A DNA stretch of 64,000 bases from an uncultured Gammaproteobacteria bacterium (GCA_965369325.1 CBDUQI010000007.1:92-64091); one strand, 5' to 3'; shown: positions 4,584-22,026, numbered from the stretch's first letter. The notes: a model not told the origin generated them from the sequence alone. Numbers and translations: made by a program.

Positions 4584-4642
4584 AACAATATTCTCCTTTA
4601 TTGACCCGTTCGCTGCATACAGCGAACCCCTGTCTGAAGACC

Positions 4643-7600: not shown

Positions 7601-10600
7601 CATGCGGTCAAGGTCCACCGCAAAAAACGAGAGATTGTAGTGGAACGGCTTCATCCCAATTGGTTTATTACGATTGATATCCATTTTGCCAATCTCAACA
7701 AAACGTCCATAGTCACGCAGTAAAGACAAACTCAGATCGATTAACGGGCCCGCCAATGAGTTCAAAACAACATCAACACCTTCCTCGTCAGTATCCGCCA
7801 GTATGTCCTGTGCGAAACTTGGCGAGCGCGAATCATAAATATGCTCTACCCCGAGACTTTGAAGAAACGATCGTTTCTCATCGTTGCTCGCGGTCGCGTA
7901 AACTTCGGCACCGACCCATTGTGCGAGTTGGATCGCTGCTTGGCCGACGCCCCCTGCCGCTGCGTGTATTAGCACGCGGTCACCCTTAGATAAACGAGCC
8001 AGGTCAACCAGACCGTAATAGGCGGTCATGAACACCATTGGCATAGCCGCGGCCTCCTCGTCTCCCAATGAGGAGATGGGCACCACCAGTGAATCAACGG
8101 TGACTGTGTGCGATCGTAGGCTGTGTGGCGCGAGCGCCATCACCCTATTGCCCACAGAAAGATCACGCACTTGGGATCCGTGGGCGAGCACAACGCCTGC
8201 GCATTCCATCCCCAAGGTATCTCCACTCCAAAGATTCTCCTCCATCAGATCGATGGGAAACAACCCGCTAGCCTTCAACACGTCCTTGAAGTTGAGGGAG
8301 GCGTGACTTACTTTGATCAACACCTCATTAGGCCCTGGCAATGGCAGCGGCATTGGCACGTAACACAGACTGTCGAGATGGCCGGATTCCCGAAATTCCA
8401 TAGAGAAGGCTCGCCCGTCAGCCAATGTTGCAACTGCAGAGCTTTTCCCTTCCCGACGTATCAGACGCCGAACATAGCGTCGTCCATCGCGAAGAGTTAC
8501 TTCCTCCTCATCTGCGCCGGGCGCTATCTCACGGTAGATATCATCCAAGTCGTCTGCGGAGATACGCTCCCCCAGATCGATGATCTTGCTCGCGAGCTCT
8601 GGATGCTCGTTACCCAGCACTCGAACAAGGCCGAACAGTGGGGATTGAGCAAGGTGAATATTCGAAGTGTTGTCACACTCAGATGCCTCACAGGTAAGAA
8701 TACGCAACGCGGCCGGCATCTTAGAAAGGCTTGAAAGACTCTGCAATAGATACACAACACTGCCAAACCCGTCACTCTGACGGGACATAACCTGTTCGAC
8801 ATCAAGCGCGTCACCGCGTGGTGCGTCGAATGCAAAACCGTGCACAACATTGTGAATTTCCACCCCCGCTGCGGCGAGATCCTGCACCAATTGCTGGTAA
8901 TGCTCCCGGCAAGACGGATCAACTTGGTAGAGGCTTTCACCCAGTTTTTTATACGTATTAGCCTTTTTTACCTCTACCAGTTTTTGCTCACGGTCCCGAA
9001 AAGCGGTGCTAATCCACTCGCTCTGTTCATTGGTGAGAACCAACCAGACCTGATCTTTGTCGACTTCGCGCGTGGGAATATCTTCCAACTGCCAATCAAA
9101 ACTGTACAGCCACTGCGCAGCATGTTTCTGGAGGTTTTCACTTGAGTAGTCAATCGCCTCGCAACGCAACTGTCGAATATCTAGAATTGGAAGGCCGTCG
9201 TCGCCATACAACATGACGTTCGCGGTGAACGAATGCTCACCCTTTTTGGTGATACGGGCGTGACTCCAACAGTCCATGGACTGCGGTTTGTTCACCAGCC
9301 GGCAGCTTTTGATACTTACCGGCAGATATGCCTGGTCACGCATATCCGCATCTTCCGCGGTCAGCGAAAGAGCGCCGAAGATGCAATGCAAGCTGGCATC
9401 CAGCCAAGCCGGATGGAAGTTGTAGCCGTCGCCATCGCCGTCGGCGCCGTCAGTTTCGAACGGCGTGATGCGCGCCAGGCATTCGTCCACGCCTTGGTGC
9501 ATTTTGATGATGCGTTGAAAGTCTTTCCCGTAGTGAAATCCGATATGCCCGAACAGTTCATACAGGTAGTCGACCGGCAGTTCCCTAGTACAGCGCGCAA
9601 GAATCGCCTCGATATCCGCGCAGGCGCACAGGCGTGTGGCTTGCTTTCGTACATGGCCTTGACAATGTCGGTCCCAACCGCTCTGGCTCTCTGATAACGA
9701 GCTAATCGCGAAGGAATTGTCGGCATCTATGGCGAACTGCAGACTCACTGCATCGGTGGGTGGCACGAACAACGCTTTGCTCAAACGTAGGTTTTCAACA
9801 ACGCAATGCTCTTTGTCCCAATCGACATCGACCGCTGCGCAAGCCATTTCGATATAGCCGGCGCCGGGAAACACCACCTCGCCCTGAATTTTGTGATCCC
9901 TCAAGTATGGGTATCGGTCCAGATCAATGGTCTGATTCCATACGGTGTTAGCCAATTGCAGCCTTGCACCCAACAACGGATGTGTCTTCCCTTTGGCGGC
10001 CACCAGCGTTTGCATGGCATAACCCTTACGAACACTGGCCGCATCCTCAGACTCTGCCCAGCACGATATCGGTTGCCATGGGTAGTTGGGCAGATTGAGT
10101 AACTTGCCTTCGGGATAGATACTTTTCCAATCAACATCTGTCCCGTGCTGATAAAGATTGGACAGATTACGCAGCAGATTCTTTCTTTCCTGCTGCTCGC
10201 GCCGCAAACTATGCGCTTGCGGCGCCGTCTTGCCCACCGCCTCCAGGCACTCTCGAATAGCACCCGACAGAACAGGATGCGGACCCACCTCCAGGATGGG
10301 TGGCAACTCAGTGGCTTCCTCGCGCAGGCACCAATTCATCAACGCCTTGGCGAAATACACGGGCTGTCTGACATTTCTCCACCAATACTCGGCATGCAAC
10401 TGTGGTCCATCAAGCTCACCGCCCGTCACTGTAGAGATGTACGGAATCTGTGAATTCTTAGGCGTCAAGGTGGCCAGGGACGCGAGTAAATCCTCTTGTA
10501 GAGGATCCATCTTCGAGCTGTGATAGGGCACCTCTACGATGAGAGGACGATTGAATATCTCTTTGTTCTCCAGCTTTCTGGCAATCACGCCTAGCACCTC

Positions 10601-12721
10601 AGCATCGCCGGAGAGTGTGACGCTTGTCGGGCTGTTTACGGCCGCGATCGATACTTGCTGCATCGCCTCCGGGAACATGGCCGTGACGTCCTTCTCGCTG
10701 GCGCCAACCGCAAGCATCGTGCCGGTTCCGCGCATACGATACTGCAGCTGGCTGCGGTAATACGACAGCCGCACCGCATCGTCCAATGACAGTATCCCGG
10801 CAACGTGTGCTGCCGATACCTCTCCCACCGAGTGGCCCATTACCGCCGAAGGTACTACTCCCCAACTCCTCCACAGATTCGCCAGCGCCACCTGGATACT
10901 AAAGATCGCCGGCTGCGCTACCGTGGTTTCCTGAACACGAGAATCGCCTTCTTCGCGCGCCAGCTCCTCAAGTAGTGACCAGCCCGTAAGGGGTAGAAAC
11001 GCCTGATCACAGCTCCGCATCGTTTGTTCAAAAACTGGCTCCTGCTCCAGCAGCTCTCGACCCATTGCCCACCATTGCGGCCCCATACCCGTAAATACAA
11101 ACAGCGGACCAGGCCTAGTATTGTCACTGTTGGCAAGTCGCAGATCATCGGTATTTTTTGAAAGTTGGACCAGTTGTCTTTGCAAATCGGCCTGATCGTC
11201 GACAAGCAACGTAGCGCGGTAACCAAAATCCCCGCGCCGTGATGCCAGGGTATACGCCAAATCGGCAAGAACCGGTTGATTGTCCTCGACGTACCGACTG
11301 ATTTGCTCAGCCTGCGCACTCAATGCCTCCGGAGAATGAGCAGAGAGCTTTATTAAGTCCGTGTCCCGCCCAGTTGGCGGATATGAGCCGGCACCGTTGG
11401 TGAGTTGAGCCGTATCTTTTCGCTTCGGTGGCTCCTTGAGCAACACATGCACATTGGTACCGCCAAAACCAAATGAATTGACGCCGGCAATTTTCTCTGT
11501 TGGTTGCTGCCAGTCTTCCAATTCAATGGGCACCCGCAGCTTCAGCGCCGGCAAATCGATCTTCGGATTCACTTCCTCGAAATTGAGGTTGCGGGGAATT
11601 TTTCCGTTCTTTAGCGCCAACGCCGCTTTGATGAGGCCAGCCACGCCCGAGGCTGACTCCAAATGTCCCATGTTGGATTTGACCGACCCGATAACACATG
11701 TTTCACCATCAGCGCGTCCGTTCGACAGCACCCGCCCCAGAGCGTTCGCCTCGATGGGGTCACCGACCGGCGTACCGGTACCATGTGCTTCCACATACCC
11801 AATATCGCTGGGCTCAATCCCGGCGTTTTCAATCGCGGCGTGAAGCAATGTCTCTTGCGCCGAACCGTTTGGAACCGAGATACCCACCGTTCGCCCGTCC
11901 TGGTTACACGCCGAGCCGATGACGAGCGAGTAGATCGGGTTTTTGTCGTTCAGCGCCGCCGACAACGGCTTTAGCAACACCAGGCCGGCCCCCTCGCCGC
12001 GTACATAGCCGTTCGCTCGCGAATCAAATGAAAAACACCGTCCGTCAGGGCTGAGCATCGATGCCTTGCTCATCGCGATGGTCATCTCAGGGCGAATTAT
12101 CAGATTAACCCCACCCGCCAAGGCTGTATCACACTCGCCGTTGTGAATACTCTGACACGCCAGATGAATCGCCAACAAAGACGAGGAGCAAGCTGTGTCT
12201 ACGGCCATGCTCGGGCCGCTTAAGTTGAACGCGTAAGATACTCGGTTAGCGGCAATGCTCATCGCGGTACCCGTACCGGTATGAGCATTTAAATGATGCC
12301 GTTCGTTAAACTGAATATGCTGATAATCGTGAATGAATATCCCTACGAAAACACCGGTTCTAGCGCCACTTAACTTGCTCGGTAATTCTCCTGCATCCTC
12401 CATAGCTTCATACGCAGTTTCCAGTAATAGCCGTTGCTGCGGGTCAATATGCGCCGCCTCACGTGGAGAGATTTTGAAAAATTCGGGATCAAACCCATCA
12501 ATGCTGGGCAGGAATCCGCCCCTTGTTGCGTATGTTTTGCCTGGTGTCGTCGGGTCCTTCGAGTAGAGCGCTTCGAAGTCCCATCTATCTGTCGGCACTT
12601 CACCAACCGCGTCGGCGCCACTCCTCAACAAACGCCAGTAAGAGTCTACGTCATTGACGCCGCCTGGAAAACGACAGCCAACCCCCACAATAGCAATGGG
12701 CTCTTTCGTTTCGAATTTCAT
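4643..12721 (-). CDS. type I polyketide synthase, single fully reducing module: KS-AT-DH-(psiKR)-ER-KR-ACP-TE-TE
   Basis: 2692-aa ORF starting directly with KS (EPIAIVGVGCRFPGG). Domain motifs are listed in the sub-features below. AGGAAG RBS before ATG 12721. Confidence 0.95.
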   Translation of the reverse strand: MKFETKEPIAIVGVGCRFPGGVNDVDSYWRLLRSGADAVGEVPTDRWDFEALYSKDPTTPGKTYATRGGFLPSIDGFDPEFFKISPREAAHIDPQQRLLLETAYEAMEDAGELPSKLSGARTGVFVGIFIHDYQHIQFNERHHLNAHTGTGTAMSIAANRVSYAFNLSGPSMAVDTACSSSLLAIHLACQSIHNGECDTALAGGVNLIIRPEMTIAMSKASMLSPDGRCFSFDSRANGYVRGEGAGLVLLKPLSAALNDKNPIYSLVIGSACNQDGRTVGISVPNGSAQETLLHAAIENAGIEPSDIGYVEAHGTGTPVGDPIEANALGRVLSNGRADGETCVIGSVKSNMGHLESASGVAGLIKAALALKNGKIPRNLNFEEVNPKIDLPALKLRVPIELEDWQQPTEKIAGVNSFGFGGTNVHVLLKEPPKRKDTAQLTNGAGSYPPTGRDTDLIKLSAHSPEALSAQAEQISRYVEDNQPVLADLAYTLASRRGDFGYRATLLVDDQADLQRQLVQLSKNTDDLRLANSDNTRPGPLFVFTGMGPQWWAMGRELLEQEPVFEQTMRSCDQAFLPLTGWSLLEELAREEGDSRVQETTVAQPAIFSIQVALANLWRSWGVVPSAVMGHSVGEVSAAHVAGILSLDDAVRLSYYRSQLQYRMRGTGTMLAVGASEKDVTAMFPEAMQQVSIAAVNSPTSVTLSGDAEVLGVIARKLENKEIFNRPLIVEVPYHSSKMDPLQEDLLASLATLTPKNSQIPYISTVTGGELDGPQLHAEYWWRNVRQPVYFAKALMNWCLREEATELPPILEVGPHPVLSGAIRECLEAVGKTAPQAHSLRREQQERKNLLRNLSNLYQHGTDVDWKSIYPEGKLLNLPNYPWQPISCWAESEDAASVRKGYAMQTLVAAKGKTHPLLGARLQLANTVWNQTIDLDRYPYLRDHKIQGEVVFPGAGYIEMACAAVDVDWDKEHCVVENLRLSKALFVPPTDAVSLQFAIDADNSFAISSLSESQSGWDRHCQGHVRKQATRLCACADIEAILARCTRELPVDYLYELFGHIGFHYGKDFQRIIKMHQGVDECLARITPFETDGADGDGDGYNFHPAWLDASLHCIFGALSLTAEDADMRDQAYLPVSIKSCRLVNKPQSMDCWSHARITKKGEHSFTANVMLYGDDGLPILDIRQLRCEAIDYSSENLQKHAAQWLYSFDWQLEDIPTREVDKDQVWLVLTNEQSEWISTAFRDREQKLVEVKKANTYKKLGESLYQVDPSCREHYQQLVQDLAAAGVEIHNVVHGFAFDAPRGDALDVEQVMSRQSDGFGSVVYLLQSLSSLSKMPAALRILTCEASECDNTSNIHLAQSPLFGLVRVLGNEHPELASKIIDLGERISADDLDDIYREIAPGADEEEVTLRDGRRYVRRLIRREGKSSAVATLADGRAFSMEFRESGHLDSLCYVPMPLPLPGPNEVLIKVSHASLNFKDVLKASGLFPIDLMEENLWSGDTLGMECAGVVLAHGSQVRDLSVGNRVMALAPHSLRSHTVTVDSLVVPISSLGDEEAAAMPMVFMTAYYGLVDLARLSKGDRVLIHAAAGGVGQAAIQLAQWVGAEVYATASNDEKRSFLQSLGVEHIYDSRSPSFAQDILADTDEEGVDVVLNSLAGPLIDLSLSLLRDYGRFVEIGKMDINRNKPIGMKPFHYNLSFFAVDLDRMLQQRPGYCGAMLARIHDLYSSGDLQPLKSTCYPANQAQAAFKSMLSGGHMGKLVVSFAEADQLEVNAPTAPVFQSDASYLITGGLGGFGSSLARWLVERGCRHLSLLGRSGATSPAAQRLVKDLETMGAQVTVIKADISDRADVETIINSVNPDVPVRGVFHAAGVLDDALLLKQDMQKFERVAATKIRGSLNLHELSQRWDLECFVLFSSVATTLGNQGSGNYAAANGFMDSLAHFRKANGQPALSVNWGVIADVGMAADEDFYRRSLEENGLRALHSRDGLELMGMALCDGDTQITISPIDWEKWLRFNPAGATTRFGDLADAQAQGQASSQSAEEQGLREKFDSLPEDEVKEVAIAEVQEILSKLFGFDANRLLPEQALTSLGMDSLMAVELKAKLDRFGVSLPVATLLRDTSVAKIVDVMLDTFDIQGAAGKGVAGQTEPQREGAWIVTPHPRPDAKYRMFCFPYAGAGPVVFQDWHEALSPEIEVCAVHLPGRAARLGESPLTRIEQMKKAVAGAMGPMLDKPVIFFGHCMGAIVMYEVAAQLKLTAGIEPHHVFVSGCMAPHLYNSPMVYALGEQKFLEVLDLISFTSAGALHKDKEVLDLMTPMLRADFEAVAHYAEAKTDDVVFSAPITGFAANHDLFAAPCAMRAWGGYTSSEFRLNLLDGDHYFIESDRDIILDEINHTLGLSTSSSSHRHRFEVAEVGAISVATSQVVYGRDSRRHLAGHTNPNLLHWPSRYSPRKNTLLCFPGAWETSPSPAYLPLSMGEHWQVAVVQYPGHGLRKDEACTENIQDIVEELLPSVLDYIGRPFGFFGHCFGGIIQYELAKRLKLDGYSEPEFMVVSGVVSPTLYTAPNGHLLDDGKLAELLNVIDCPLLDSFDGKRRSAPLRNLVRSDLMLMANYTCDDAPKLDCPITAVAGKRDLWTYPLQVSSWHDLTTSFDTKTILHEGNHFMSQQDVELFSQCIHQRFSTSSSKSAETA
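4680..5365 (-). other. thioesterase domain 2 (PF00975-like) with Cys at the nucleophile position
   Basis: LLCFPGAWETS...FFGHCFGGII...EGNHFM. The Cys codon is the complement of 5138-5140 (residue about 2528). Confidence 0.75.
5535..6235 (-). other. thioesterase domain 1 (PF00975-like) with Cys at the nucleophile position
   Basis: FCFPYAGAG...FFGHCMGAIV...DGDHYF. The Cys codon is the complement of 5996-5998 (residue about 2242). The canonical motif is GHSMGG. Confidence 0.8.
6330..6545 (-). other. PKS acyl carrier protein domain (approximate bounds)
   Basis: LGMDSLMAVEL. The phosphopantetheine Ser codon is the complement of 6434-6436 (residue about 2096). Confidence 0.85.
6830..7385 (-). other. 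PKS ketoreductase domain (approximate bounds)
   Basis: Rossmann motif YLITGGLGGFGSSLARWL; SSVATTLGNQGSGNYAAANGF. Confidence 0.8.
7440..8400 (-). other. PKS enoylreductase domain (approximate bounds)
   Basis: MDR-type fold motifs, NADPH site LIHAAAGGVGQAAIQLAQ. Confidence 0.8.
9150..10000 (-). other. PKS dehydratase domain (approximate bounds)
   Basis: HPLLG and the HxxxGxxxxP motif (HKIQGEVVFPGAGY). Confidence 0.8.
10230..11110 (-). other. PKS acyltransferase domain (approximate bounds)
   Basis: FVFTGMGPQWWAMG, catalytic GHSVGE, later YHS motif (VPYHSSKM). Confidence 0.85.
11426..12706 (-). other. PKS ketosynthase domain (approximate bounds)
   Basis: DTACSSSL active-site Cys, EAHGTGTPVGDP, SNMGHLESASG, C-terminal GFGGTNVHVLL. 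Confidence 0.9.
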
Positions 12722-12801
12722 CTTTCTTCCTTGGCGTAACCGCCGAGAATGGGGCTGATTCTTAAGGTCGCAACGGAAACCTGAAGAGACAATTTGTTCA
12801 T

Positions 12802-13605
12802 CTAAATATTTAGATGCCTAATTTCCTTGGCGGGCCAATCCTTGTGATATTTTGTGTACACTTTTTCATCTTCCAGGCGCTCGTAGTCTTTTACCGGTGC
12901 ACTCCAGTTGTTAATACTGTGGTGTCTGTTGTGGTAAATGATCCCGTTGAGCAATACCCTGCCCCACAAAAATCGCATCGCCGGCAGTACATGGCGCATA
13001 TCTTCTGCGCGCTCATAAACACCAAAGTCCGAATCGGCACGAAAACTTGATCGATGGGTGTAATAATTGAAAAAGAAAATTGCGATTGCCCGGATGAACC
13101 TTTGTGAAAGCACGTGTATCCAGTAGATCGCTCCAAAGAACACCAGGTGTACGGACAACATCGTGACGTTGATGAGAATGCTGGTGATCAGTTGCCGATT
13201 CATGCCTTTTTCCCGGTAATACTGATAACCGTTGTATTCGCTCTCAAACACGTTCCACACCAAGGCACTAAGACAATGACCGTTGTAGTAGGGGAGCCAC
13301 GGATCTGTGTACGTCCCGAAGTAGCGATGGTGTCTGTTGTGCGTATTGCGAAACGCGAGCAGCCCCCCCCAAATGGGATCCGCTACTAATGGATGCCGAG
13401 ACGTAAACCAAATGTCCTTCAAGGGGGCGCCGTGACTCAGATCGTGGATGTGCAAGTAGATCGCCGGGTAGAATATGATGTTGCACAAGACCAGCACATA
13501 CCACGGCAACCAGCCGCAGGCGAAAGCGATAAAGACAAAATATAAAAACGCGCTTCTCAGAAGTACGCCAAGATTCAGAAAAAATCCCTCTCTTGCCTTT
13601 ATCAC
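12802..13605 (-). CDS. membrane fatty-acid desaturase/hydroxylase family protein (three His boxes)
   Basis: ORF 12802..13623. His boxes HDLSHG, HNRHH and HNRHH; several TM segments. Start moved to the in-frame GTG at 13605, 7 nt after GGAGG. There is no ATG upstream of the first His box. Confidence 0.75.
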   Translation of the reverse strand: MIKAREGFFLNLGVLLRSAFLYFVFIAFACGWLPWYVLVLCNIIFYPAIYLHIHDLSHGAPLKDIWFTSRHPLVADPIWGGLLAFRNTHNRHHRYFGTYTDPWLPYYNGHCLSALVWNVFESEYNGYQYYREKGMNRQLITSILINVTMLSVHLVFFGAIYWIHVLSQRFIRAIAIFFFNYYTHRSSFRADSDFGVYERAEDMRHVLPAMRFLWGRVLLNGIIYHNRHHSINNWSAPVKDYERLEDEKVYTKYHKDWPAKEIRHLNI

Positions 13606-13663
13606 TCCGCCACCTCCGAGCAATTACTTAACAGCAATGGACGCTACGGAAGCTGCCTGGCGA

Positions 13664-15037
13664 TCACCTGACTTCCGCCAGGGGTAAACCACTAGGCACT
13701 CTCGTAGGTACGGTTTTGCGCAAATCCTGTGCTGATGGATCAGTAAGGGCGTTAAGGAAATCGAGTAAATCCACAACCTGGTCGTCAGTCAGGTTCATTG
13801 ATGGCAACTCGATTGCATCGGAGATTGCCTGAGTTATTTCATCATTGTTAAACGCGATCAAATCCATCGCGTCCAGGTCAGGGCGCGGCGGCATAACGAT
13901 CTGTGACGGATCGGCGTTCGCCAAGGCTTGCTGAGGATTCAGGTGATGCCGAACCACCGCCTCCAAGGAATTGTAGAACCCATCGTGCCCCCATGGACCG
14001 GTCAAAGCGGTATTGCGCAACGACGGTGTGCGGAACTTGTATCTGTCGGCACTATCGCCGGTAAAATCTTCACGCCCGAAGTCTTCAACACCTTCTATGC
14101 CGTTGCCAAAACCGGGCCCCACCTGCGGAATGCCAATTGCGTAAAATTTGTGATCCGTCTGGAACAACCCACTATGGCAGGCGCTGCACTGTGCTTCGCC
14201 ATAGAACAAGCGCATTCCCCGCTTGGCGCTGCGACTCATGGCGCTCCTGTCACCACGTAACAACCGATCGAACGGGCTGTTATCCGACCGAAAAGCCGTC
14301 CCCTGAAACGCTGCCAGCGCTTCGCCAAGCTGAACGATATCCATTTGATCGGGATCAAGGGCCACATCCGGAAAGGCTGCGGTGAACAACTCAACGTACT
14401 CAGGAATCGCCCGCATCCGCTCGACCAGCGATTCCCAAACAGGAACATGTGGACCGCCAGCGCCCGCATCGGCCATCTCATTGGTACCCGGCTGCCCCAA
14501 CATCTCCTGCGTATCGGTCTGAGCGAAAATTGATAGCGCGGCGAGTGGACTGCTGAATCCTAGTGGTAAGTTTTCACCTGCGGGTGTATCGAAGCCCTGG
14601 GGAATCTGCTCGTTGACCTGAATCCGGCCGTCCCAGAACAGCGTCATAAACTCCCGATGGCCAAGGTTAAACAGCGGGGTCATGTTGCGAGCACCTCTGG
14701 CCTGTGGGTCCAGACTGCTCGGCGGAAAGTTGCCGGCGTTGCGCTGTACGCTAAGGCCCTCGGCCCCGGTACCGATATTCGTAGACAAACCATCGACGGT
14801 GCCGATTAACGGCGAATGACAGGTGGCACAGGAAATATCTCGGTTGCCACTCAGTTCCTTATCAAAGAACAACATTTGCCCCAAGGCCACCATTTCCTGC
14901 GATGGTTGAATGAAATCGTCGTCCATAGCGGCCAGCGGCAGCAATTGACCCAATCCAGCATCGTCATCCGCCACAACCGGTGCGGACACAACAAATGCAC
15001 AACTGATGACGAGCGCCAACCAATATCGTTTACGCAT
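13664..15037 (-). CDS. periplasmic di-haem cytochrome c peroxidase / MauG family protein
   Basis: 457-aa ORF with a signal peptide (MRKRYWLALVISCAFVVSAPVVA) and two CxxCH motifs (CATCH, CSACH). CCP-like core GPWGHDGF. Confidence 0.85.
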   Translation of the reverse strand: MRKRYWLALVISCAFVVSAPVVADDDAGLGQLLPLAAMDDDFIQPSQEMVALGQMLFFDKELSGNRDISCATCHSPLIGTVDGLSTNIGTGAEGLSVQRNAGNFPPSSLDPQARGARNMTPLFNLGHREFMTLFWDGRIQVNEQIPQGFDTPAGENLPLGFSSPLAALSIFAQTDTQEMLGQPGTNEMADAGAGGPHVPVWESLVERMRAIPEYVELFTAAFPDVALDPDQMDIVQLGEALAAFQGTAFRSDNSPFDRLLRGDRSAMSRSAKRGMRLFYGEAQCSACHSGLFQTDHKFYAIGIPQVGPGFGNGIEGVEDFGREDFTGDSADRYKFRTPSLRNTALTGPWGHDGFYNSLEAVVRHHLNPQQALANADPSQIVMPPRPDLDAMDLIAFNNDEITQAISDAIELPSMNLTDDQVVDLLDFLNALTDPSAQDLRKTVPTRVPSGLPLAEVR

Positions 15038-15200
15038 AACCCGACTCCTCTGCGAGGTACTAAATATATTCAGTCAATACCGATACGTAGCACGGCGATT
15101 GGCCGGGCTCGTGGTGGGGGAAAAATCAGGGTACGTTGCGCCTTAGGCGCGCAGCGTAAACCCGAAATAGCCTGCGAATCGCGGATGCGGCACCGCAGGC

Positions 15201-15236
15201 GATGTACGTACTGCGCTAACTGGCAGTACGTACATC
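15201..15236. terminator. perfect 14-bp stem-loop 12 nt downstream of the 15248 gene stop (attenuator/terminator or RNA-stability element)
   Basis: GATGTACGTACTGC (15201-15214), 8-nt loop, GCAGTACGTACATC (15223-15236). No U-tract follows on the minus strand, so it is not a canonical intrinsic terminator. A second imperfect palindrome (GCGCCTTAGGCGC) lies near 15137-15152. Confidence 0.3.
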
Positions 15237-15247
15237 ACGTGATGTTC

Positions 15248-15871
15248 CTATTCGGTGAAGCAGAGCTGGCCCTCTTCGACAGCAAAATCGGCAACCCGAT
15301 TTTCCGGATCGTCACACCCGTTTACTGTGCCTTTCCAAACGATACTGCCAGACTCAATATTTCTGAATGCACCGGTTCCGATTGAAGTATCGAACAACAT
15401 TTGCTCCGTCGCCTCCGCGAACTGCGGATTGCCGTTATCGTCGGGGCAACTGCCGACGTCGATAGTAAACAAGCCCTCGTTGGAGGTTATGCTGCCGATT
15501 CGATCTCGGGTACCCAGAATATGTCGAGTAACAAAGCCCCCAGCCGCCTCGTCAAATGGATGCCCCAGCAACGCACCGGCCAGAATTGTCCGCTCGCCAT
15601 CTTTGGAAATCACCATCCTGTATCGACCTATCTCCCTATCGCTGTTCAGGCCGTCGATCTCAAAGACAGCGCGTGACACCTCATAACGCCCTCTCAACAC
15701 GTCGTAACAACCACTAAATACACTTTCCCCATGATCTAATGAGCTCGTCGAGTCTTTGAGGCTTGCCTGGTCCGGCACATTTGCGGCTTGGTCCGCCGAC
15801 GCCGCCCCTGCCAGAACAACGGACAAACACATGACGACAGACAACACCTTTTTATTCAAAACGTTAGACAC
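15248..15871 (-). CDS. exported protein of unknown function (first gene after the MerR-type promoter)
   Basis: ORF 15248..15892. Start moved to the in-frame GTG 15871, 8 nt after GGAGG, giving a signal peptide MSNVLNKKVLSVVMCLSVVLAGAASA. No family recognised. Confidence 0.6.
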   Translation of the reverse strand: MSNVLNKKVLSVVMCLSVVLAGAASADQAANVPDQASLKDSTSSLDHGESVFSGCYDVLRGRYEVSRAVFEIDGLNSDREIGRYRMVISKDGERTILAGALLGHPFDEAAGGFVTRHILGTRDRIGSITSNEGLFTIDVGSCPDDNGNPQFAEATEQMLFDTSIGTGAFRNIESGSIVWKGTVNGCDDPENRVADFAVEEGQLCFTE

Positions 15872-15961
15872 ATCGATTCCCTCCGCTAACACGTAATTTG
15901 GGGTACAACCACCATCATGATGGTGTACCTTTAGGTATGGTATGGAACGTAACTCAGTGCT

Positions 15962-15992
15962 ACTCTACAACTTAAAGCATACATTATGTCAA
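15962..15992 (-). promoter_or_regulatory. MerR-type promoter, 19-bp spacer, firing toward the PKS operon (site 1)
   Basis: Minus-strand read: TTGACA (complement of 15987-15992), 19-nt spacer TAATGTATGCTTTAAGTTG, TAGAGT (complement of 15962-15967). 27 of 32 nt are identical to site 2 at 21996-22026. Overlaps the 5' end of the divergent regulator gene, as in mer/sox loci. Confidence 0.6.
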
Positions 15993-16423
15993 GTAATATT
16001 ATGACCGACTTTACGATTGGCGAAGTCTCCAAGCGCTCGGGCCTAAGCGCCTCCGCAATCAGGTATTACGAAGCCGAAAGCATCGTGCCTAAGCCTGCCC
16101 GCAGAAACGGACGGCGGATTTACGATGAAGATTGGATGAACCGGTTGGGCATCGTATTAATCGCGCAAGAGGCAGGGTTCTCACTAAAGGAAATACGGAA
16201 TTTGACACGGCAACTTGGCAACTCAGGATCGTCTAGTTCCGAGCAGTTGCAGCACGCTGCCCGGTGTCAATTGCAAACATTGAACGATCGCAAAGTACGA
16301 ATACAACAAATGGAGCAATTGTTAGAAGGTTTGCTACATTGCCATTGTCACAGCCTCGACAAATGCGGTCAGATTGCATTAAGACTGGTGTCGCCTACAG
16401 GCGGAAAAACTACCGCCTCCTAG
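15986..16423 (+). CDS. MerR-family transcriptional regulator, SoxR-like
   Basis: N-terminal HTH FTIGEVSKRSGLSASAIRYYEAESIV...GRRIY, coiled-coil dimerisation helix, C-terminal HCHCHSLDKC cluster. The true start may be ATG 16001 (MTDFTIGE...), since 15986 overlaps the -35 of the divergent promoter. Confidence 0.85.
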   Translation: MSSNIMTDFTIGEVSKRSGLSASAIRYYEAESIVPKPARRNGRRIYDEDWMNRLGIVLIAQEAGFSLKEIRNLTRQLGNSGSSSSEQLQHAARCQLQTLNDRKVRIQQMEQLLEGLLHCHCHSLDKCGQIALRLVSPTGGKTTAS

Positions 16424-16492
16424 CTCACAGCCTACTGTCGTAACGTTAACCAGGTGGGCCCTTCCGGCTTTCGCCCCATCAAGCTACTGCCC

Positions 16493-17689
16493 TCAGAAAT
16501 ATCGGGTTACCCGTATCTGCAGATAATCATCGCTTTCAAAAGAATACTGTGCCGAACTCTCCTCAGCCCCGCTAAACATACGCAGCCTCAACCCTGCGGT
16601 TATGCTCTCGCCAATACGACGCTCTGCTTCCAGATTGTAGAACCGCTCCGAATTGCGGCGGTCAAAAATCAGCCCCGCAAGAATATTGGTGTCTTGAGTA
16701 TCGTTTAAGGTCAATCTGCTGCCAACAAACACGTCATCATCGAAAGTCGTCGGTGGATCGTGCAAATTGCGGTCATCGTACAAGTACTCCATCAGAAAAC
16801 CGAAATCGGCATTCGAGTTCATCAGTTGATATCGCGTGTATTCAAATCCCGCGACCGCAGCAAAGAACGAGCTATTACCACCGGTTGCGACCAGGCTCTC
16901 CAACTTCCACAGCCATGCCGCCCCGGTGTACTGCAAATCCAGTCCCCATTGCCGCATCTGAGTATAGATAGGTATCAACTTGTCCCGGCCCCGGTTTAGC
17001 GTAAACCCCGGCTCCCTGCTGGTGCCGTCAAAGTAATACAGACCCACGTCAGCGCTGCCAAAATAATGGCTGTAACGTACGGCGAAATCCGTATGTTTTT
17101 GTTTGGCTGCCGATTCAAACCTGGCGCGGTCATCGTCCACTACCAACGAAGCTCTAAATCGCCCGTCTTGGCCACCAAACGTACGTTCGCGAAAATAGGG
17201 CAACACATAGAAGTCCAGCTTGCCCCAATCACGTTGCAAGCTGAGGTTAACCATTGGCTGACCCAACTTGTCCTCCTGATCCGGGTCCTCAACCAAATCG
17301 GTCTGATTGATGACGTCGATCAAATGACGGGATTCCGCCACGCCCCAGAACACCTTGTTGACACCCACAAGCAATTCCCAGCCGCCGCCCTCGTAGGCCC
17401 AGTAAGCTTCACGAAGATCAGGGTGTGTGCGCTGGGAATCTACCTCGTCAATCCGCAGAAATGGTTGGATACTGATCCGATGTTTTTCATCCTCGCTGCG
17501 CCAGCGCCATTCAAAATTAAGCAATGCGGAGAACTGTGCATCATCCACTTGTTTCCTAAAATTGGGGGACTCTAGAAAAAAGCGCGACTCTAATCCAGTG
17601 TCCAAAGACAATTTCCACTCGCCGGCCCACCCTGACTGAGGTAGGACTAGCAACCCGAGTGTGAACAAGTGGAAAAACGACAATCGCAT
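16493..17689 (-). CDS. putative outer-membrane beta-barrel protein (unknown family)
   Basis: 398 aa. Signal peptide MRLSFFHLFTLGLLVLPQSGWA, alternating-pattern sequence, C-terminal ...IRVTRYF (aromatic terminal residue typical of OM barrels). Its start overlaps the upstream stop (TGATG). Confidence 0.6.
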   Translation of the reverse strand: MRLSFFHLFTLGLLVLPQSGWAGEWKLSLDTGLESRFFLESPNFRKQVDDAQFSALLNFEWRWRSEDEKHRISIQPFLRIDEVDSQRTHPDLREAYWAYEGGGWELLVGVNKVFWGVAESRHLIDVINQTDLVEDPDQEDKLGQPMVNLSLQRDWGKLDFYVLPYFRERTFGGQDGRFRASLVVDDDRARFESAAKQKHTDFAVRYSHYFGSADVGLYYFDGTSREPGFTLNRGRDKLIPIYTQMRQWGLDLQYTGAAWLWKLESLVATGGNSSFFAAVAGFEYTRYQLMNSNADFGFLMEYLYDDRNLHDPPTTFDDDVFVGSRLTLNDTQDTNILAGLIFDRRNSERFYNLEAERRIGESITAGLRLRMFSGAEESSAQYSFESDDYLQIRVTRYF

Positions 17690-18501
17690 CAGCGCAGGCT
17701 ACGCAACCTTCCTTTTACGAAATCCTGATCCTTCAAACCAACGGAAAACTGGTAGTCACCGTAAAACAGGTCTGTGCTTTTATCAGTCTGATGATTCACC
17801 ATTCTCAGCGTTTGCGCCCGCCAGATCCCATCGTAGTTTTGATATTCCTCTAACGTGAGGGTTTTCAATAAATCACCGCGTCGATCGTAGAATTCAATTT
17901 TCCGAATTTGGAAAACCTGCTGATCAATCCAGACCAACTGTCGGGCGTAGCCGGAGCTCTCATACCTGGGTAGCCGCTCAAGCACATCGTAGATCACGCC
18001 ATCGTCGCCGTTCTCTGCACGCAGGTATTTGTAGGTGTACTTATTCAACTCCTGGGATGTAAAATCTTCAAACGCAAACTCCGACCCCACAAATGGACCG
18101 GATTTGTTGGCCGACGCGATACGTTTAACTCTTTTCAGGGCCGGCAGAAATAGCCACTGATCATCCGGCTCCAGGATTTTCGCATGGGACAGCAATGCGG
18201 TGCCTTCGATATCCCTCGGACTCTTAAACACCACCAGACTTTTGTCACCAAAAGCCTCATCTGCGACTTCCAATGTCGTAACACGCAGCTGGCGGGTGCT
18301 CTCCTGTCCGGCCGCGTTGCGCAGAATCATCTTCAGGGTGACTTTGCTATCGCCAAAGCCGCGATCAGATCGGTCCGCTCGGGCCGCAACGTCCAAGCCC
18401 TTCTGATCGGCATCTTGCGCTTGTGCGCTCACCGTCAAACCTAGCGCGCACAACAATACCGCACTACATACAACGTTGTTGGTAAGTGAATTAATAGACA
18501 A
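17689..18501 (-). CDS. LolA-like periplasmic protein (outer membrane lipoprotein-sorting protein family)
   Basis: 270 aa with a signal peptide. Family-like motif QWLFLPALKRVKRIASANKSGPFVGSEFAFEDF. TTG start after GGAG. Confidence 0.75.
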   Translation of the reverse strand: MSINSLTNNVVCSAVLLCALGLTVSAQAQDADQKGLDVAARADRSDRGFGDSKVTLKMILRNAAGQESTRQLRVTTLEVADEAFGDKSLVVFKSPRDIEGTALLSHAKILEPDDQWLFLPALKRVKRIASANKSGPFVGSEFAFEDFTSQELNKYTYKYLRAENGDDGVIYDVLERLPRYESSGYARQLVWIDQQVFQIRKIEFYDRRGDLLKTLTLEEYQNYDGIWRAQTLRMVNHQTDKSTDLFYGDYQFSVGLKDQDFVKGRLRSLR

Positions 18502-18563
18502 AGAATTCTCCGAAGTATTTCACGCCGAATTTTGAGCAACCTCAGCTAAGCCAATTTGTATAA

Positions 18564-20930
18564 TCAGGATGCCTCCGGTTGAGGAATTTTCCTGGCTGAA
18601 CCAACGACCAGCTTCTCTCCGCCCAAGAGCAGTAGCGCCGGCAGGAATAAAAAATCGAGTATAAGAGCGAAGATAATGGCCAGGGCCGTCAACAAACCGA
18701 GATCGGCATTCACTTTGAAACTGGACGTCACCAAGACAAGGAATCCAGAGGCCAATATGAGCGTGCTGACCATGATCGCTGTCCCTACACTGGTAAACGC
18801 GTAGCGGATAGAATCGGCCGAATCCAATCCTTTTTCGCGTCGCGCCCTCACGTATTTGGACAAAAAGTGCACCGTATCGTCTACCACGATACCTAACGAG
18901 ATAGAACCGACGATTGCGACAGAAAACCCCACCTCTCCCACCAGCAAGGCCCACGCCCCGAATGTAGCCAGAATCGGCAGCCCGTTTGGCACAAGACTTA
19001 GCAAGCCCAAAGGCCAACTGCGTAGCGCAATCACCATGATCAGTGCGATGGCTAGTATTGCAACAATTGTACCGCGAATCATGTTGCTTACGTTTCGCTC
19101 GGTAATGTATGTGAACATCACTTGTGCACTGGTCGGTTTCGCATGCATATACTCAGGCAGGTTTTGTTTGCCCCAAGCAGCCGTGTCCTGAAGAAACTTC
19201 TTGGCTTGCATTGTCGTTGAATTGTGCAGCGTTGCTGTAACTCGACTTGCCGATTTGTCAATGTTGATTCGATCATTCATATCCAGCCCGTACGGCAAAG
19301 ACATCTCGTACAACAAAAGGTATTGAGCTGACAATTCACGGTTGTCAGGAATCCGATAATACGCTGGATCATCGCCATGAAGATTCTTATTTAGTCGCTT
19401 CATCACATCGGAAATACTATATACATGCATTACCTCGGGATGGTTGCGTAGAAATTCGGCAAACTGCTCCAGTTTTTCCAAATAGAACGGTTCACTGACT
19501 GCTCCAGGGCCGGACGCGCCCACAGAAAACTCGATGGGATACATGCCGAAGTGCTTCAGTGCCCTGTCGCTGTCGGTTCGAAATTCAATACTCTCGTCAA
19601 AATAATCTACCCACTGAGTGTTATATTGAATTGAGGGAATGAATGCGATCAGCACTATCGAGGCTGCGCCAAGGCCGATCAACAACTTGTTTCTTTGGCT
19701 AATTGCGAAATCAGCAATTCGAACCATTAGGCGATGTGACCAGGATCGTCGGTGACTCACTTTTACCTTGAAGGGCAACAGGCTAACCATCGCCGGCAAT
19801 ACGGTAATGCTGTACAACCAAGCGGCCGCGATGCCTGCGGCTGTGATATTGCCCAAATGCCAAAACGGCGGAGAGTCTGAGAAGTTGAGCGCAAGAAACC
19901 CAACAATAGTCGTAATTGAAGTAATCGTGACGGGAAGAAAATTCAACCGCATCGCCTCGACGATCGCTGCGCCCTTCGCCAATCCTTCGCGCAGCGCAGC
20001 TCTGAAAGACACCAGGATATGAATCGAATCCGCAATAGCAAGTGTGAGGATTACGATAGGTGCCGAACCCGAGACGGGAGTGAGTTCGACCCCGGTAAAC
20101 CCCGCCACCCCCATTCCAACGGTAGTCGATAAGACAATGATCACCAAGGTCACGAATGTGCCACTGATGGACCTAAGAATAAGAACCGTCATGATCAAAA
20201 TGATGCCGAACATGACCGGTATTACGCTGCTAATATCGCGAATGGCGGCCTCTGAGAATGCATTGTTGAGCATCGACACACCGGTGAGCGAAATCTCCAA
20301 GTGTGGGTACTCAGCCTCAATACTATCTCTTACTTCACGGGCGGCCGCAGCGGCCTCAAACACCTCGGCCAGTCTCTCACCGGGGTACTGCAATATCACA
20401 TTGACAGCGGTTGCGTTCGCTTTAGGGGTGATAAGCTGGTTCAGTAGCAACGGCTCATCAAGCGCGATTTGTAGCTTACTCTCTAGTTCGGAACTGGATG
20501 CCGATTCAGCATTATTCACTAAATCTTCGACTATCAAGTCGTCATCTACACCTGTGGTACTTTGAAAATTGGTGAGCGAATCCACCCGAATCGCAAAGGG
20601 TATTTTCCAGGCTGAATCGGTAAGCGCCGTGATGGCAGTGAGCGTCTTGTTGCTGAACACAGTGCCGTCGTCCGGCTCCAAAACGAACAAGAAATTGTCG
20701 TTCTTAGTGTAGGTCTCCTGTACGTGCTCGAATGCCCTCAGCTCGGGATTGTCTGGTGAGAAGAAGACGCGGTAGTTGTTGGCGAATTCAAGCTTTAGTA
20801 TTCCTGCACCGACACCCGCAGCCAGGATGACGGCGCAAGCGATAACTCCCCAGCGAAATCGGATGACCCAACGAGCAAAGCCAGTTGCGAACTCGTCGAC
20901 GTTCTTAAAATACCCTGACACAACGAGCAC
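18564..20930 (-). CDS. RND-superfamily exporter of the MMPL / COG1033 type
   Basis: 788 aa with two 6-TM bundles, each preceded by a large soluble loop. SSD/MMPL-like segments (GVSMLNNAFSEAA..., VDDTVHFLSKY). GTG start. Confidence 0.85.
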   Translation of the reverse strand: MLVVSGYFKNVDEFATGFARWVIRFRWGVIACAVILAAGVGAGILKLEFANNYRVFFSPDNPELRAFEHVQETYTKNDNFLFVLEPDDGTVFSNKTLTAITALTDSAWKIPFAIRVDSLTNFQSTTGVDDDLIVEDLVNNAESASSSELESKLQIALDEPLLLNQLITPKANATAVNVILQYPGERLAEVFEAAAAAREVRDSIEAEYPHLEISLTGVSMLNNAFSEAAIRDISSVIPVMFGIILIMTVLILRSISGTFVTLVIIVLSTTVGMGVAGFTGVELTPVSGSAPIVILTLAIADSIHILVSFRAALREGLAKGAAIVEAMRLNFLPVTITSITTIVGFLALNFSDSPPFWHLGNITAAGIAAAWLYSITVLPAMVSLLPFKVKVSHRRSWSHRLMVRIADFAISQRNKLLIGLGAASIVLIAFIPSIQYNTQWVDYFDESIEFRTDSDRALKHFGMYPIEFSVGASGPGAVSEPFYLEKLEQFAEFLRNHPEVMHVYSISDVMKRLNKNLHGDDPAYYRIPDNRELSAQYLLLYEMSLPYGLDMNDRINIDKSASRVTATLHNSTTMQAKKFLQDTAAWGKQNLPEYMHAKPTSAQVMFTYITERNVSNMIRGTIVAILAIALIMVIALRSWPLGLLSLVPNGLPILATFGAWALLVGEVGFSVAIVGSISLGIVVDDTVHFLSKYVRARREKGLDSADSIRYAFTSVGTAIMVSTLILASGFLVLVTSSFKVNADLGLLTALAIIFALILDFLFLPALLLLGGEKLVVGSARKIPQPEAS

Positions 20931-21078
20931 CCCCGGAATGGTAAATCCTTGCTCAAACGCTCCATCAACGGCAGGCCCGCCTGTCGCGGCAATCCCCGCG
21001 CAGACTTTATCGCGATCGGCCCCCGTGCCATCGATCTAACACCTGTGCCGTAATGCCGCCCCAAACTCCCGATCCGAT

Positions 21079-21300
21079 TTATTCAATCGAACGACGCCAG
21101 CGTAACGCAGCCACCAATGCCCAAATACTCTCAGCAATCATAAATGGGTAAGAGCCCAACAAGAAAGCGTAGATCGCAGCCAGCAGGCAACCCAGCGCGA
21201 ATATACCCACGTAAATCGAGCCGCGAGACTCCAGAGCATAGCTGGCCACCATGATTGTGACTGCCAACAGACCGAATAGCTCAGTGGGATTACTGATCAT
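21079..21300 (-). CDS. small membrane protein (73 aa, 2-3 TM)
   Basis: Hydrophobic ORF, third gene of the operon driven by promoter site 2. No family assigned with confidence. Confidence 0.5.
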   Translation of the reverse strand: MISNPTELFGLLAVTIMVASYALESRGSIYVGIFALGCLLAAIYAFLLGSYPFMIAESIWALVAALRWRRSIE

Positions 21301-21337
21301 CGCGCACCGCCGACCCGACCAGGATGCTCAATGAACA

Positions 21338-21646
21338 CTATGTAATCGGTTTTTGCCTGCGCCACATCTTGAGCAAACGATAGCCCAGTAGCCCCAACAG
21401 CATCAATATTCCAACTAACCCGATAGCGACCCCGATCATCTCAACAATTGGCGGTGGGCTCAGCCACCTTGATGCCGCACTAAAACCGCCCAAACCGACC
21501 AATGCGAGAATGATTGGAAGTTCGCAGGCCACAATCGAAAGTACACCTATGAGCACGCCGGTAACACCGGCGCGCCGGATTTTCTTTGATGATGAACTGG
21601 GCGATGAGTTCGCATCGTGGGCGGAGCTGTTCACGGATTCACTCAT
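21338..21646 (-). CDS. small membrane protein (102 aa) with a Ser-rich N-terminus and one intramembrane Cys (VACELP)
   Basis: Two predicted TM helices. Its start overlaps the upstream stop by 4 nt (ATGA). Confidence 0.55.
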   Translation of the reverse strand: MSESVNSSAHDANSSPSSSSKKIRRAGVTGVLIGVLSIVACELPIILALVGLGGFSAASRWLSPPPIVEMIGVAIGLVGILMLLGLLGYRLLKMWRRQKPIT

Positions 21647-21963
21647 TGTACTCTACTCGTTATTGCGCTTCGGAAGATTTCGATCATATTCGCAGCCTCT
21701 GGAGGGCCTTGTATCAACAAGGACAATCCATCTGCAGGCTCGCTGATCGTGAAGGTCAGGAATCCGCAACACCCTTTTTCGGCGGATACGAACTCCTCTA
21801 CCTGTGCTCTGAGTAATTCGGAATCCTCAAACTCAACCTGAAACCCATCCGGTACGGATTGCGAGCTGAGGACCTTTGATATTACCAGTTCGCGGAGGGT
21901 CGATCGACGTTGCTTCCTCTCTTGCGACGACAACGTGCAGAAAAGTTCAGAATCATTTTGCAT
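21643..21963 (-). CDS. small cytoplasmic Cys-containing protein (CTL...GCCGFLTF motif)
   Basis: ORF 21643..21978 begins at GTG. ATG 21963 is preferred (MQNDSELFC...), 8 nt after GAGGAG. Cys9 plus the adjacent Cys pair resemble small proteins I recall next to MerR/ArsR regulators. That is a memory-based, weak recognition. Confidence 0.55.
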   Translation of the reverse strand: MQNDSELFCTLSSQERKQRRSTLRELVISKVLSSQSVPDGFQVEFEDSELLRAQVEEFVSAEKGCCGFLTFTISEPADGLSLLIQGPPEAANMIEIFRSAITSRVQ

Positions 21964-21995
21964 GCAGACACTCCTCACATAGATGGCTTACGGCC

Positions 21996-22026
21996 ACTCT
22001 ACAACTTAAAGCCGACTTTAAGTCAA
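21996..22026 (-). promoter_or_regulatory. MerR-type promoter, 19-bp spacer with near-perfect dyad (site 2)
   Basis: Minus-strand read: TTGACT (complement of 22021-22026), 19-nt spacer, TAGAGT (complement of 21996-22001). The spacer holds the dyad ACTTAAAG-N4-CTTTAAGT (22004-22023, 18 of 20 palindromic). Confidence 0.6.

Follow-up and report, generated by a model that had tools for sequence, protein, structure and literature searches.

Two SoxR-type promoter sites and a three-cysteine SoxR-clade regulator beside a polyketide synthase and export cluster of an uncultured gammaproteobacterium

Introduction

Regulators of the MerR family activate transcription at promoters with spacers of 19-20 bp (PMC8113463), and one of them, SoxR, is known from antibiotic producers to sense endogenous polyketides and to control transporters and oxidoreductases (PMC4146615). 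Here we describe two sites of this promoter type, together with a MerR-family gene adjoining one of them, on a 64,000-nucleotide (nt) stretch of DNA (hereafter the window) from an uncultured Gammaproteobacteria bacterium (GCA_965369325.1 CBDUQI010000007.1:92-64091). Among the closest described arrangements is that of Escherichia coli SoxR and soxS, in which, as at this locus, the regulator is divergent from its target and the 19-bp spacer is centred on a dyad, the register being the same in both. The initial annotation had proposed that the two promoters are near-identical and that the adjacent regulator uses them to control a polyketide synthase (PKS) operon and a small-protein operon 6 kb away.

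The reading we favour, to which we give a probability of roughly 0.7 on the sequence and comparative evidence below, is that both sites are genuine MerR/SoxR-type promoters and that the adjacent regulator most likely serves both. Site 2 appears to head an operon of small proteins. That the regulon extends to the PKS genes is possible, and is the weaker claim.

Results

Two near-identical promoter sites

The two sites were read directly from the window sequence, as follows.

15962-15992, minus strand: site 1, predicted MerR/SoxR-type promoter-operator, TTGACATAATGTATGCTTTAAGTTGTAGAGT
21996-22026, minus strand: site 2, predicted near-consensus promoter-operator, TTGACTTAAAGTCGGCTTTAAGTTGTAGAGT

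Site 1 comprises a -35 hexamer TTGACA (15992-15987), a spacer of 19 nt and a -10 hexamer TAGAGT (15967-15962), while site 2 has TTGACT, again 19 nt, and TAGAGT. At 19 bp, the -35 and -10 elements lie too far apart and out of phase for RNA polymerase; we read both sites as activator-dependent promoters. The two sites are identical at 27/31 positions across the promoters and at 27/32 over the slightly different boundaries first drawn around them, so the original observation of two near-identical minus-strand copies of TTGAC(A/T)-19 nt-TAGAGT holds. A repeat finder likewise pairs them as a 35-nt repeat (family D7; 30/35 identical, 86%), within which the right half-site, the -10 hexamer and the intervening bases form 17 nt of exact identity.

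The spacer of site 2 carries the dyad ACTTAAAG-TCGG-CTTTAAGT, and our recount of its 20-nt core gave self-complementarity at 18/20 positions, the same figure as before. The corresponding core of site 1 (15970-15989) is self-complementary at just 14/20 positions because its left half-site is degenerate, with an A at position 6 and a T at position 10 that occur in 2% and 0%, respectively, of 193 related sites (described below). Site 1 is probably the weaker operator of the two.

Within the window, the joint pattern has two matches, compared with none in 100 shuffles. When the 193 related sites were compiled into a weight matrix, site 2 scored 52.3 bits and site 1 scored 38.2 bits, and a scan of the 64-kb window with this matrix found no further site above 5 bits (the maximum in shuffled sequence was -9). 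Both copies are intergenic and point toward genes, with predicted transcription starts at ~15955 for site 1 and ~21989 for site 2. The annotated ATG of the regulator, at 15986, falls partly within the -35 hexamer of site 1. Site 2 lies in the 200 nt that separate the small-protein operon from the divergent ccoN gene, and is followed by a Shine-Dalgarno sequence GAGGAG and the ATG at 21963.

These results bear on the explanation that the likeness of the sites is mere chance, or that of a dispersed repeat with no role as a promoter. The 17-nt exact match is by itself not very rare, since we estimate that ~0.1-0.2 such matches would be expected over the position pairs of 64 kb. The shuffles, of which all 100 lack the joint pattern, the matrix scan and the comparative data, in which the design is conserved across phyla beside MerR genes, nonetheless refute this explanation, and we consider its probability negligible. 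The dispersed repeat that the initial annotation had itself allowed for would be expected at many non-promoter positions; instead the window holds two copies, both upstream of genes, and no third.

The box is a conserved promoter design

The sites belong to a widespread design, TTGACTTAAAGT-N3-CTTNAAGTTG-TAnnnT, which we call the box. We scanned one collection holding one genome per species and one metagenome collection with the pattern TTGACNTAANGTNNNCTTNAAGTTG, and recovered at least 120 loci in each (at least 240 in total) from many phyla; the contig of the window itself was not among the matches listed. For comparison, our own arithmetic from the 19 fixed bases gives a chance expectation of ~4 matches for the genome scan. 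Of the first 120 loci listed, 79 have a divergent MerR-family gene within 300 bp. At positions that the pattern leaves free, a -10 hexamer TAnnnT stands exactly 19 nt past the -35 element (T 89%, A 96% and T 97% in the 193 unique sites), and conservation at such positions is predicted by a promoter design and not by a mere repeat. The recurrence of the same box and spacing in at least 240 loci supports the view that a 19-nt spacer with a central dyad marks these as MerR-type promoters.

The orthologue of the window regulator, which shares 61% identity with it, is preceded at a distance of 11 nt by the box TTGACTTAAAGTTAACTTGAAGTTG-TACATT. In E. coli (NC_000913) the promoter of soxS reads TTTACCTCAAGTTAACTTGAGGAATTATACT, in the same register as the box. 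It matches the orthologue's box at 22/31 positions and the two window sites at 17/31 and 18/31.

The regulators that adjoin the box fall into at least four groups among the matches listed (L002-L243): Firmicute NmlR-like regulators, gammaproteobacterial regulators with a C-x4-H-x2-C motif, canonical SoxR proteins with SoxR model scores of 192-209 bits, and a group with C-x-C-x5-C, here called group D, to which the window regulator belongs. With at least four MerR subfamilies sharing it, the box alone does not identify its binder. It follows that the soxbox is not specific to SoxR, and predicting a SoxR regulon from soxboxes can lead to errors.

This sharing of the box by subfamilies that include canonical SoxR would suit a different binder, in which the product of a distant MerR-family gene of the same genome, such as a true SoxR, occupies the sites while the local regulator has another target or shares them. 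Three observations speak against it: the sole MerR-family gene of the 64-kb window lies directly at site 1, the box of the 61% orthologue stands in the corresponding position, and group D regulators are partnered with the family of the first gene past site 2 (g111, below) in more than a dozen loci, even as a single fused protein. We therefore regard an outside binder as quite improbable.

A three-cysteine regulator of the SoxR clade

The gene adjoining site 1 was assigned to the MerR family using Pfam.

16001-16423, plus strand: MerR-family regulator of 140 residues, with a SoxR-like helix-turn-helix and the sensor loop HCHCHSLDKC

The annotated start at 15986 would yield 145 residues. The ATG at 16001 is the likelier start because the resulting 140 residues match the length of the 61% orthologue and because this start lies 8 nt from the box, as in relatives. 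The initial annotation's choice of the adjacent regulator stands, this being the obvious candidate to bind both sites, and its start codon probably needs correction.

The regulator exceeds the cut-offs of the Pfam models MerR_1 (58.9 bits), MerR (47.2 bits) and MerR-DNA-bind (38.0 bits), and has the architecture expected of the family, with a MerR winged helix-turn-helix at the N terminus and a long dimerisation helix behind it. It falls below the cut-off of the NCBIfam SoxR model TIGR01950 (64.0 versus 116.9 bits), and equally below those of the curated metal-sensor models for CueR (66.7 versus 147.4), MerR (55.8 versus 150.85), CadR-PbrR (54.9 versus 151.45) and ZntR (45.5 versus 167.95). 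A gapless alignment to E. coli SoxR matches C122, C124 and C130, with C119 replaced by Leu, so that the full C-x2-C-x-C-x5-C set of [2Fe-2S] ligands is lacking. The first SoxR cysteine is missing from all sampled group D members, and it is this pattern that defines the branch. The three cysteines of the window regulator lie in a C-x-C-x5-C loop at the end of the dimerisation helix, with none conserved at the start of the helix; the ligand positions of MerR, for comparison, are Cys79, Cys114 and Cys123. Only one close relative was found, the 61% orthologue, which comes from a metagenome contig of 749 bp.

A first tree, built by maximum likelihood, shows group D as one clade (95/89) that is sister to SoxR. 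A second tree, to which E. coli CueR, E. coli ZntR and firmicute MerR1 were added and which included two other box-associated groups, places SoxR and group D together in one clade (98/98) that excludes all of these; here group D is not resolved as monophyletic against SoxR. A canonical SoxR subclade (100/100) excludes the window regulator. Judged by its placement in the trees, the change of C119 to Leu and scores below every cut-off of the SoxR and metal-sensor models, the regulator is best read as a member of the SoxR clade and not as a SoxR. Group D thus emerges as a three-cysteine branch that is either sister to SoxR or part of its stem.

The site 2 operon and the g111 family

Downstream of site 2 we mapped the following genes.

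21643-21963, minus strand: 106-residue cytoplasmic protein of the g111 family, first gene past site 2, with invariant Cys9 and Cys65-Cys66
21338-21646, minus strand: 102-residue two-helix membrane protein, second gene, with an intramembrane ACELP motif and a 4-nt overlap with the upstream gene
21079-21300, minus strand: 73-residue membrane protein, third gene, with a weak YgjV-like match
16493-20930, minus strand: MMPL/HAE3-type RND transporter, LolA-like protein and 398-residue probable outer-membrane protein

The gene map agrees with the initial annotation that site 2 lies directly upstream of a three-gene operon starting at 21963. The same map qualifies the description of this operon as lying 6 kb away, since it is in fact the neighbouring transcription unit: the minus-strand run from site 2 ends convergent with the regulator. 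The MMPL gene begins 148 nt past the third small gene on the same strand. The intervening gap is unstructured (z = -0.6), which makes read-through from site 2 into the exporter genes plausible; no terminator-like structure was found in this gap, and neither a third box nor a convincing ordinary promoter was found ahead of the MMPL genes.

Among the loci fetched, we found 19 homologues of g111, nearly all directly after a box and beside a group D regulator, in Acidobacteriota, Chloroflexota, Cyanobacteriota and Bacillota. Loci with members of the family include L002, L024, L037, L067, L104, L122, L126 and L245-L247. In one locus, box, g111 and regulator follow one another as a single operon. 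From this gene order, the g111 family is a recurrent target of group D regulators. A profile search recovered 6,678 representative clusters (E <= 0.001), and domain fusions join g111 to MerT, MerR, an AhpC/TSA redoxin and DinB (DinB_2). Searches of g111 against Pfam, NCBIfam and PDB sequences gave no match, and the NCBI label is 'hypothetical protein'. The AlphaFold model is confident (predicted local distance difference test score of 87), and a fold search with it matches designed proteins only. The partnership thus reveals a conserved, small three-cysteine family of ~6,700 representative clusters for which Pfam and NCBIfam hold no model.

On Bacillales plasmids, g111 is accompanied by small Cys-rich membrane proteins, which the 102-residue membrane protein matches weakly and locally (E 0.02). 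A likeness of the 102-residue protein to MerT or MerF was considered and rejected, with no match in Pfam and no BLAST match to a MerT-g111 fusion. On two Bacillales plasmids (L245:4696-4932 and L246:4735-4986), membrane proteins of 78-83 residues with CALCCALP in the first helix and a Cys-rich tail sit between the box and the g111 homologue; they have no family assignment. Some g111 members are exported (L037:4138-4305 and L228:7338-8050) and are followed by CcdA/DsbD-like genes with the motif PCVLPLVPG, a neighbourhood that suggests a supply of reductant for periplasmic cysteines. One box-g111-regulator operon (L122) has a gene for a 674-residue TIR-domain protein (L122:3-2027) directly upstream, and the metagenome of that locus also holds the closest relative of the window regulator.

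The site 1 target and the polyketide genes

On the other side of the regulator, site 1 faces the following features.

15248-15871, minus strand: 207-residue secreted protein, first gene past site 1, with a signal peptide, a GGAGGG Shine-Dalgarno sequence and a GTG start at 15871
15133-15236, minus strand: run of three stable RNA hairpins immediately downstream of the 207-residue reading frame (-22.6, -16.9 and -10.6 kcal/mol)
2346-15037, minus strand: MauG-like di-haem protein, 273-residue membrane protein, 2692-residue PKS and 745-residue exported protein
15910-15925: perfect 16-bp palindrome CACCATCATGATGGTG, unique in the window, in the predicted 5' leader of the 207-residue gene

The 207-residue gene starts ~84 nt after the predicted site 1 transcription start. 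Its product could not be assigned to a family and has one known homologue, with 89% identity. The palindrome in its leader could be a second operator or an RNA stem.

The degenerate left half of site 1, with its dyad at 14/20 and two bases that are rare or absent in the family, raises the question of whether only site 2 works as an activated promoter. Site 1 would then be mainly an autoregulatory operator, a decayed ancestral divergent promoter with little leftward transcription. In keeping with this, site 1 abuts the start of the regulator, and the divergent gene in relatives is normally g111, which here stands behind site 2. Set against these points, site 1 keeps its -35 hexamer, 19-nt spacing, right half-site and -10 hexamer intact, still scores 38 bits, and is followed, ~84 nt past the predicted start, by a gene with a good Shine-Dalgarno sequence. 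We consider the loss of promoter function at site 1 rather improbable, and continue with the reading in which both sites are activated promoters.

A 210-nt gap separates the 207-residue gene from the MauG-like gene, and the hairpins fall within it. The second hairpin is followed by UAUUUCGGGUUU, and the cluster, which is unique in the window, includes a 14-bp perfect stem; a 226-nt stretch spanning the hairpins folds at -91 kcal/mol (z -4.7). None of the three hairpins passed a strict terminator rule, and an Rfam search of the leaders and gaps found no known RNA element. The cluster may be a terminator, an attenuator or a stabiliser. The window matrix scan found no box ahead of the MauG-like gene or the PKS, and we found no convincing sigma-70 promoter ahead of either. 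Because these three strong hairpins stand between the 207-residue gene and the MauG-PKS genes, control of the PKS by site 1 is no more than a possibility. Transcripts may read through or be attenuated, or the MauG-PKS genes may have a promoter of their own that escaped recognition, and we put the passage of site 1 transcripts through the hairpins into these genes at somewhat less than an even chance. The two-promoter regulon of the initial annotation thus survives for the promoters and the local regulator, and is in doubt for the polyketide genes on account of the hairpin gap.

The PKS itself is a fully reducing type I enzyme with the order KS-AT-DH-ER-KR-ACP-TE-hydrolase. The 273-residue membrane protein (12802-13623) has no Pfam match, but contains the motifs HDLSH and HNRHH, which resemble histidine boxes known from desaturases and hydroxylases of membranes.

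Redox or thiophilic signal

An RND exporter beside small membrane proteins recalls mexGHI-opmD, and this likeness is one of several that would fit a SoxR-like redox sensor activating a two-promoter regulon that includes the whole polyketide operon. The inducer would be redox-active compounds or the product of the cluster itself, by analogy with SoxR and actinorhodin in Streptomyces or phenazines in Pseudomonas. The regulator does lie in the SoxR clade and holds three cluster ligands at SoxR spacing, the box is soxbox-like, no good promoter is apparent in the gap before the MauG-like gene, and SoxR of antibiotic producers offers a precedent for sensing an endogenous polyketide (PMC4146615). On the other side, the regulator lacks the first SoxR cysteine, as does the whole three-cysteine branch, which the first tree recovers as a single clade, and its score of 64 bits falls well short of the 116.9 that the SoxR model requires. 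The PKS block is set off from the first gene by strong hairpins, and the PKS, being fully reducing (KS-AT-DH-ER-KR), should make a saturated lipid, and not a redox-active product. The genomic contexts of the clade are, moreover, ars, mer, P-type ATPase and CcdA-like genes. We think such a redox-driven regulon over the polyketide genes unlikely.

The arsenic and mercury contexts are as follows. In Cohnella silvisoli (L076:566-3293), a group D regulator and a box with a 19-bp spacer are divergent from arsB, arsC and a glyoxalase gene. A Peribacillus plasmid holds a group D regulator, a box, a Cys-rich membrane protein and g111 in one island, flanked by merA-merR1, an arsenic-resistance gene and a Tn3 transposase gene. 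On an Adhaeribacter plasmid, g111 and ynfA come directly after a cluster of arsR, arsN2, arsM and ACR3 on the same strand. Together with the g111 fusions, these islands point to the handling of soft metal(loid)s or thiols. A MerR-type activator before arsB-arsC would be an unusual alternative to ArsR; a full-text literature search for MerR-type arsenic regulators returned nothing specific.

Hg(II), Pb(II) and As(III) are typically bound by three thiolates. A soft-metal(loid) or thiol-reactive signal is our best guess because there are three thiolates in the sensor and three in its predicted target, and because of the ars and mer contexts. Such a signal is accordingly a better candidate than redox cyclers. 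Taken by itself, the proposal that the regulator responds to a thiophilic metal(loid), with As(III), Sb(III) and Hg(II) as examples, or to some other stress that reacts with thiols is tentative, and we place it just short of even odds; a redox-cycling compound as the signal seems doubtful. The SoxR-like redox signal implied by the initial annotation is accordingly not favoured, given the absent first cluster cysteine and the arsenic, mercury and thiol contexts of the clade.

Discussion

Proposed mechanism

In the mechanism that we propose, sites 1 and 2 would be activator-dependent sigma-70 promoters, each with its spacer taken up by a 20-bp dyad to which a dimer of a MerR-family protein binds. 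The regulator at 16001-16423 would bind both dyads. By analogy with the family mechanism, the signal would engage the three-cysteine loop at the end of the dimerisation helix, and the signal-bound regulator would untwist and shorten the spacer so that the promoter fires. Site 2 would drive the core of the regulon, namely the three-cysteine cytoplasmic protein and the two small membrane proteins, and its transcription may continue into the MMPL, LolA-like and outer-membrane exporter genes. Site 1, abutting the regulator start, would drive the secreted 207-residue protein and probably also autoregulation.

Several findings weigh against this reading. The dyad of site 1 is poorly symmetric and its left half holds the family-rare bases already described; the hairpins past its first gene count against a simple operon from site 1 to the PKS; and a box shared by at least four subfamilies does not by itself point to its binder. 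The regulator is nearest to SoxR in the tree, and not to the metal sensors, and by keeping SoxR spacing for three ligands it leaves an iron-sulfur or redox mechanism possible. The arsenic and mercury contexts belong to distant members of the clade; the neighbours in the window are a PKS and an RND exporter, and no ars genes were found within the 64 kb. Finally, a search of public sequencing runs for this DNA returned no run containing the stretch.

The type of switch is itself ordinary, and the sensor is a three-cysteine variant of the SoxR clade. For the cluster, which is otherwise opaque (an iterative PKS, a MauG-like enzyme and an RND lipid exporter), the two sites would provide two precise control points. 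A broader picture can be drawn, in which a three-cysteine branch of the SoxR clade senses soft-metal(loid) or thiol stress, has as its near-universal partner a C...CC protein family of several thousand clusters, and has had its switch duplicated, in this bacterium, so that one copy stands on either side of a 20-kb cluster for a lipid PKS and RND export, so that stress would turn on the synthesis and export of envelope lipids. We offer this extension as speculative and, taken as a whole, unlikely.

Comparison with known systems

Beyond the geometry shared with soxS, the window regulator has a recognition-helix segment, GEVxKRSGxxxSAxxxYE, that is nearly identical to that of SoxR, has three of the four cluster cysteines at identical spacing, and falls in one clade with SoxR. 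It also resembles SoxR of non-enteric bacteria (P. aeruginosa, S. coelicolor) in its predicted small local regulon with membrane and export genes (PMC4146615). It differs from SoxR in the Leu at position 119, a cysteine absent across the branch, and in its SoxR model score of 64 against 116.9 bits. The half-site here is CTTAAAG, whereas that of SoxR is CCTCAAG, and the targets of the group D clade are Cys-rich proteins and ars/mer-type genes, not oxidoreductases and monooxygenases.

With MerR and merT of Tn21/Tn501, and with CueR, ZntR, CadR and PbrR, the locus shares the logic of activation through an over-long spacer and the divergent geometry. MerR, like the window regulator, has a cysteine sensor loop at the end of the dimerisation helix, which in MerR reads C-A-C-H...C, and group D members in mer and ars islands drive small Cys-rich membrane proteins, comparable to merT and merP. 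Unlike the metal sensors, the window regulator stands outside their part of the tree and under all of their model cut-offs. A single short loop contains all three of its cysteines, and nothing in it corresponds to Cys79 and Cys82 of MerR; the operator is of the SoxR type and not of the mer or cop type.

The ars operons governed by ArsR/SmtB proteins offer a third comparison. The group D member of Cohnella silvisoli occupies the usual place of ArsR before arsB-arsC, and in Adhaeribacter an arsR-headed arsenic-resistance cluster is immediately followed, with no change of strand, by g111. ArsR/SmtB proteins nevertheless have another fold, and ArsR is a repressor that is released from its operator, whereas a MerR-type regulator is an activator that distorts the DNA to which it is bound.

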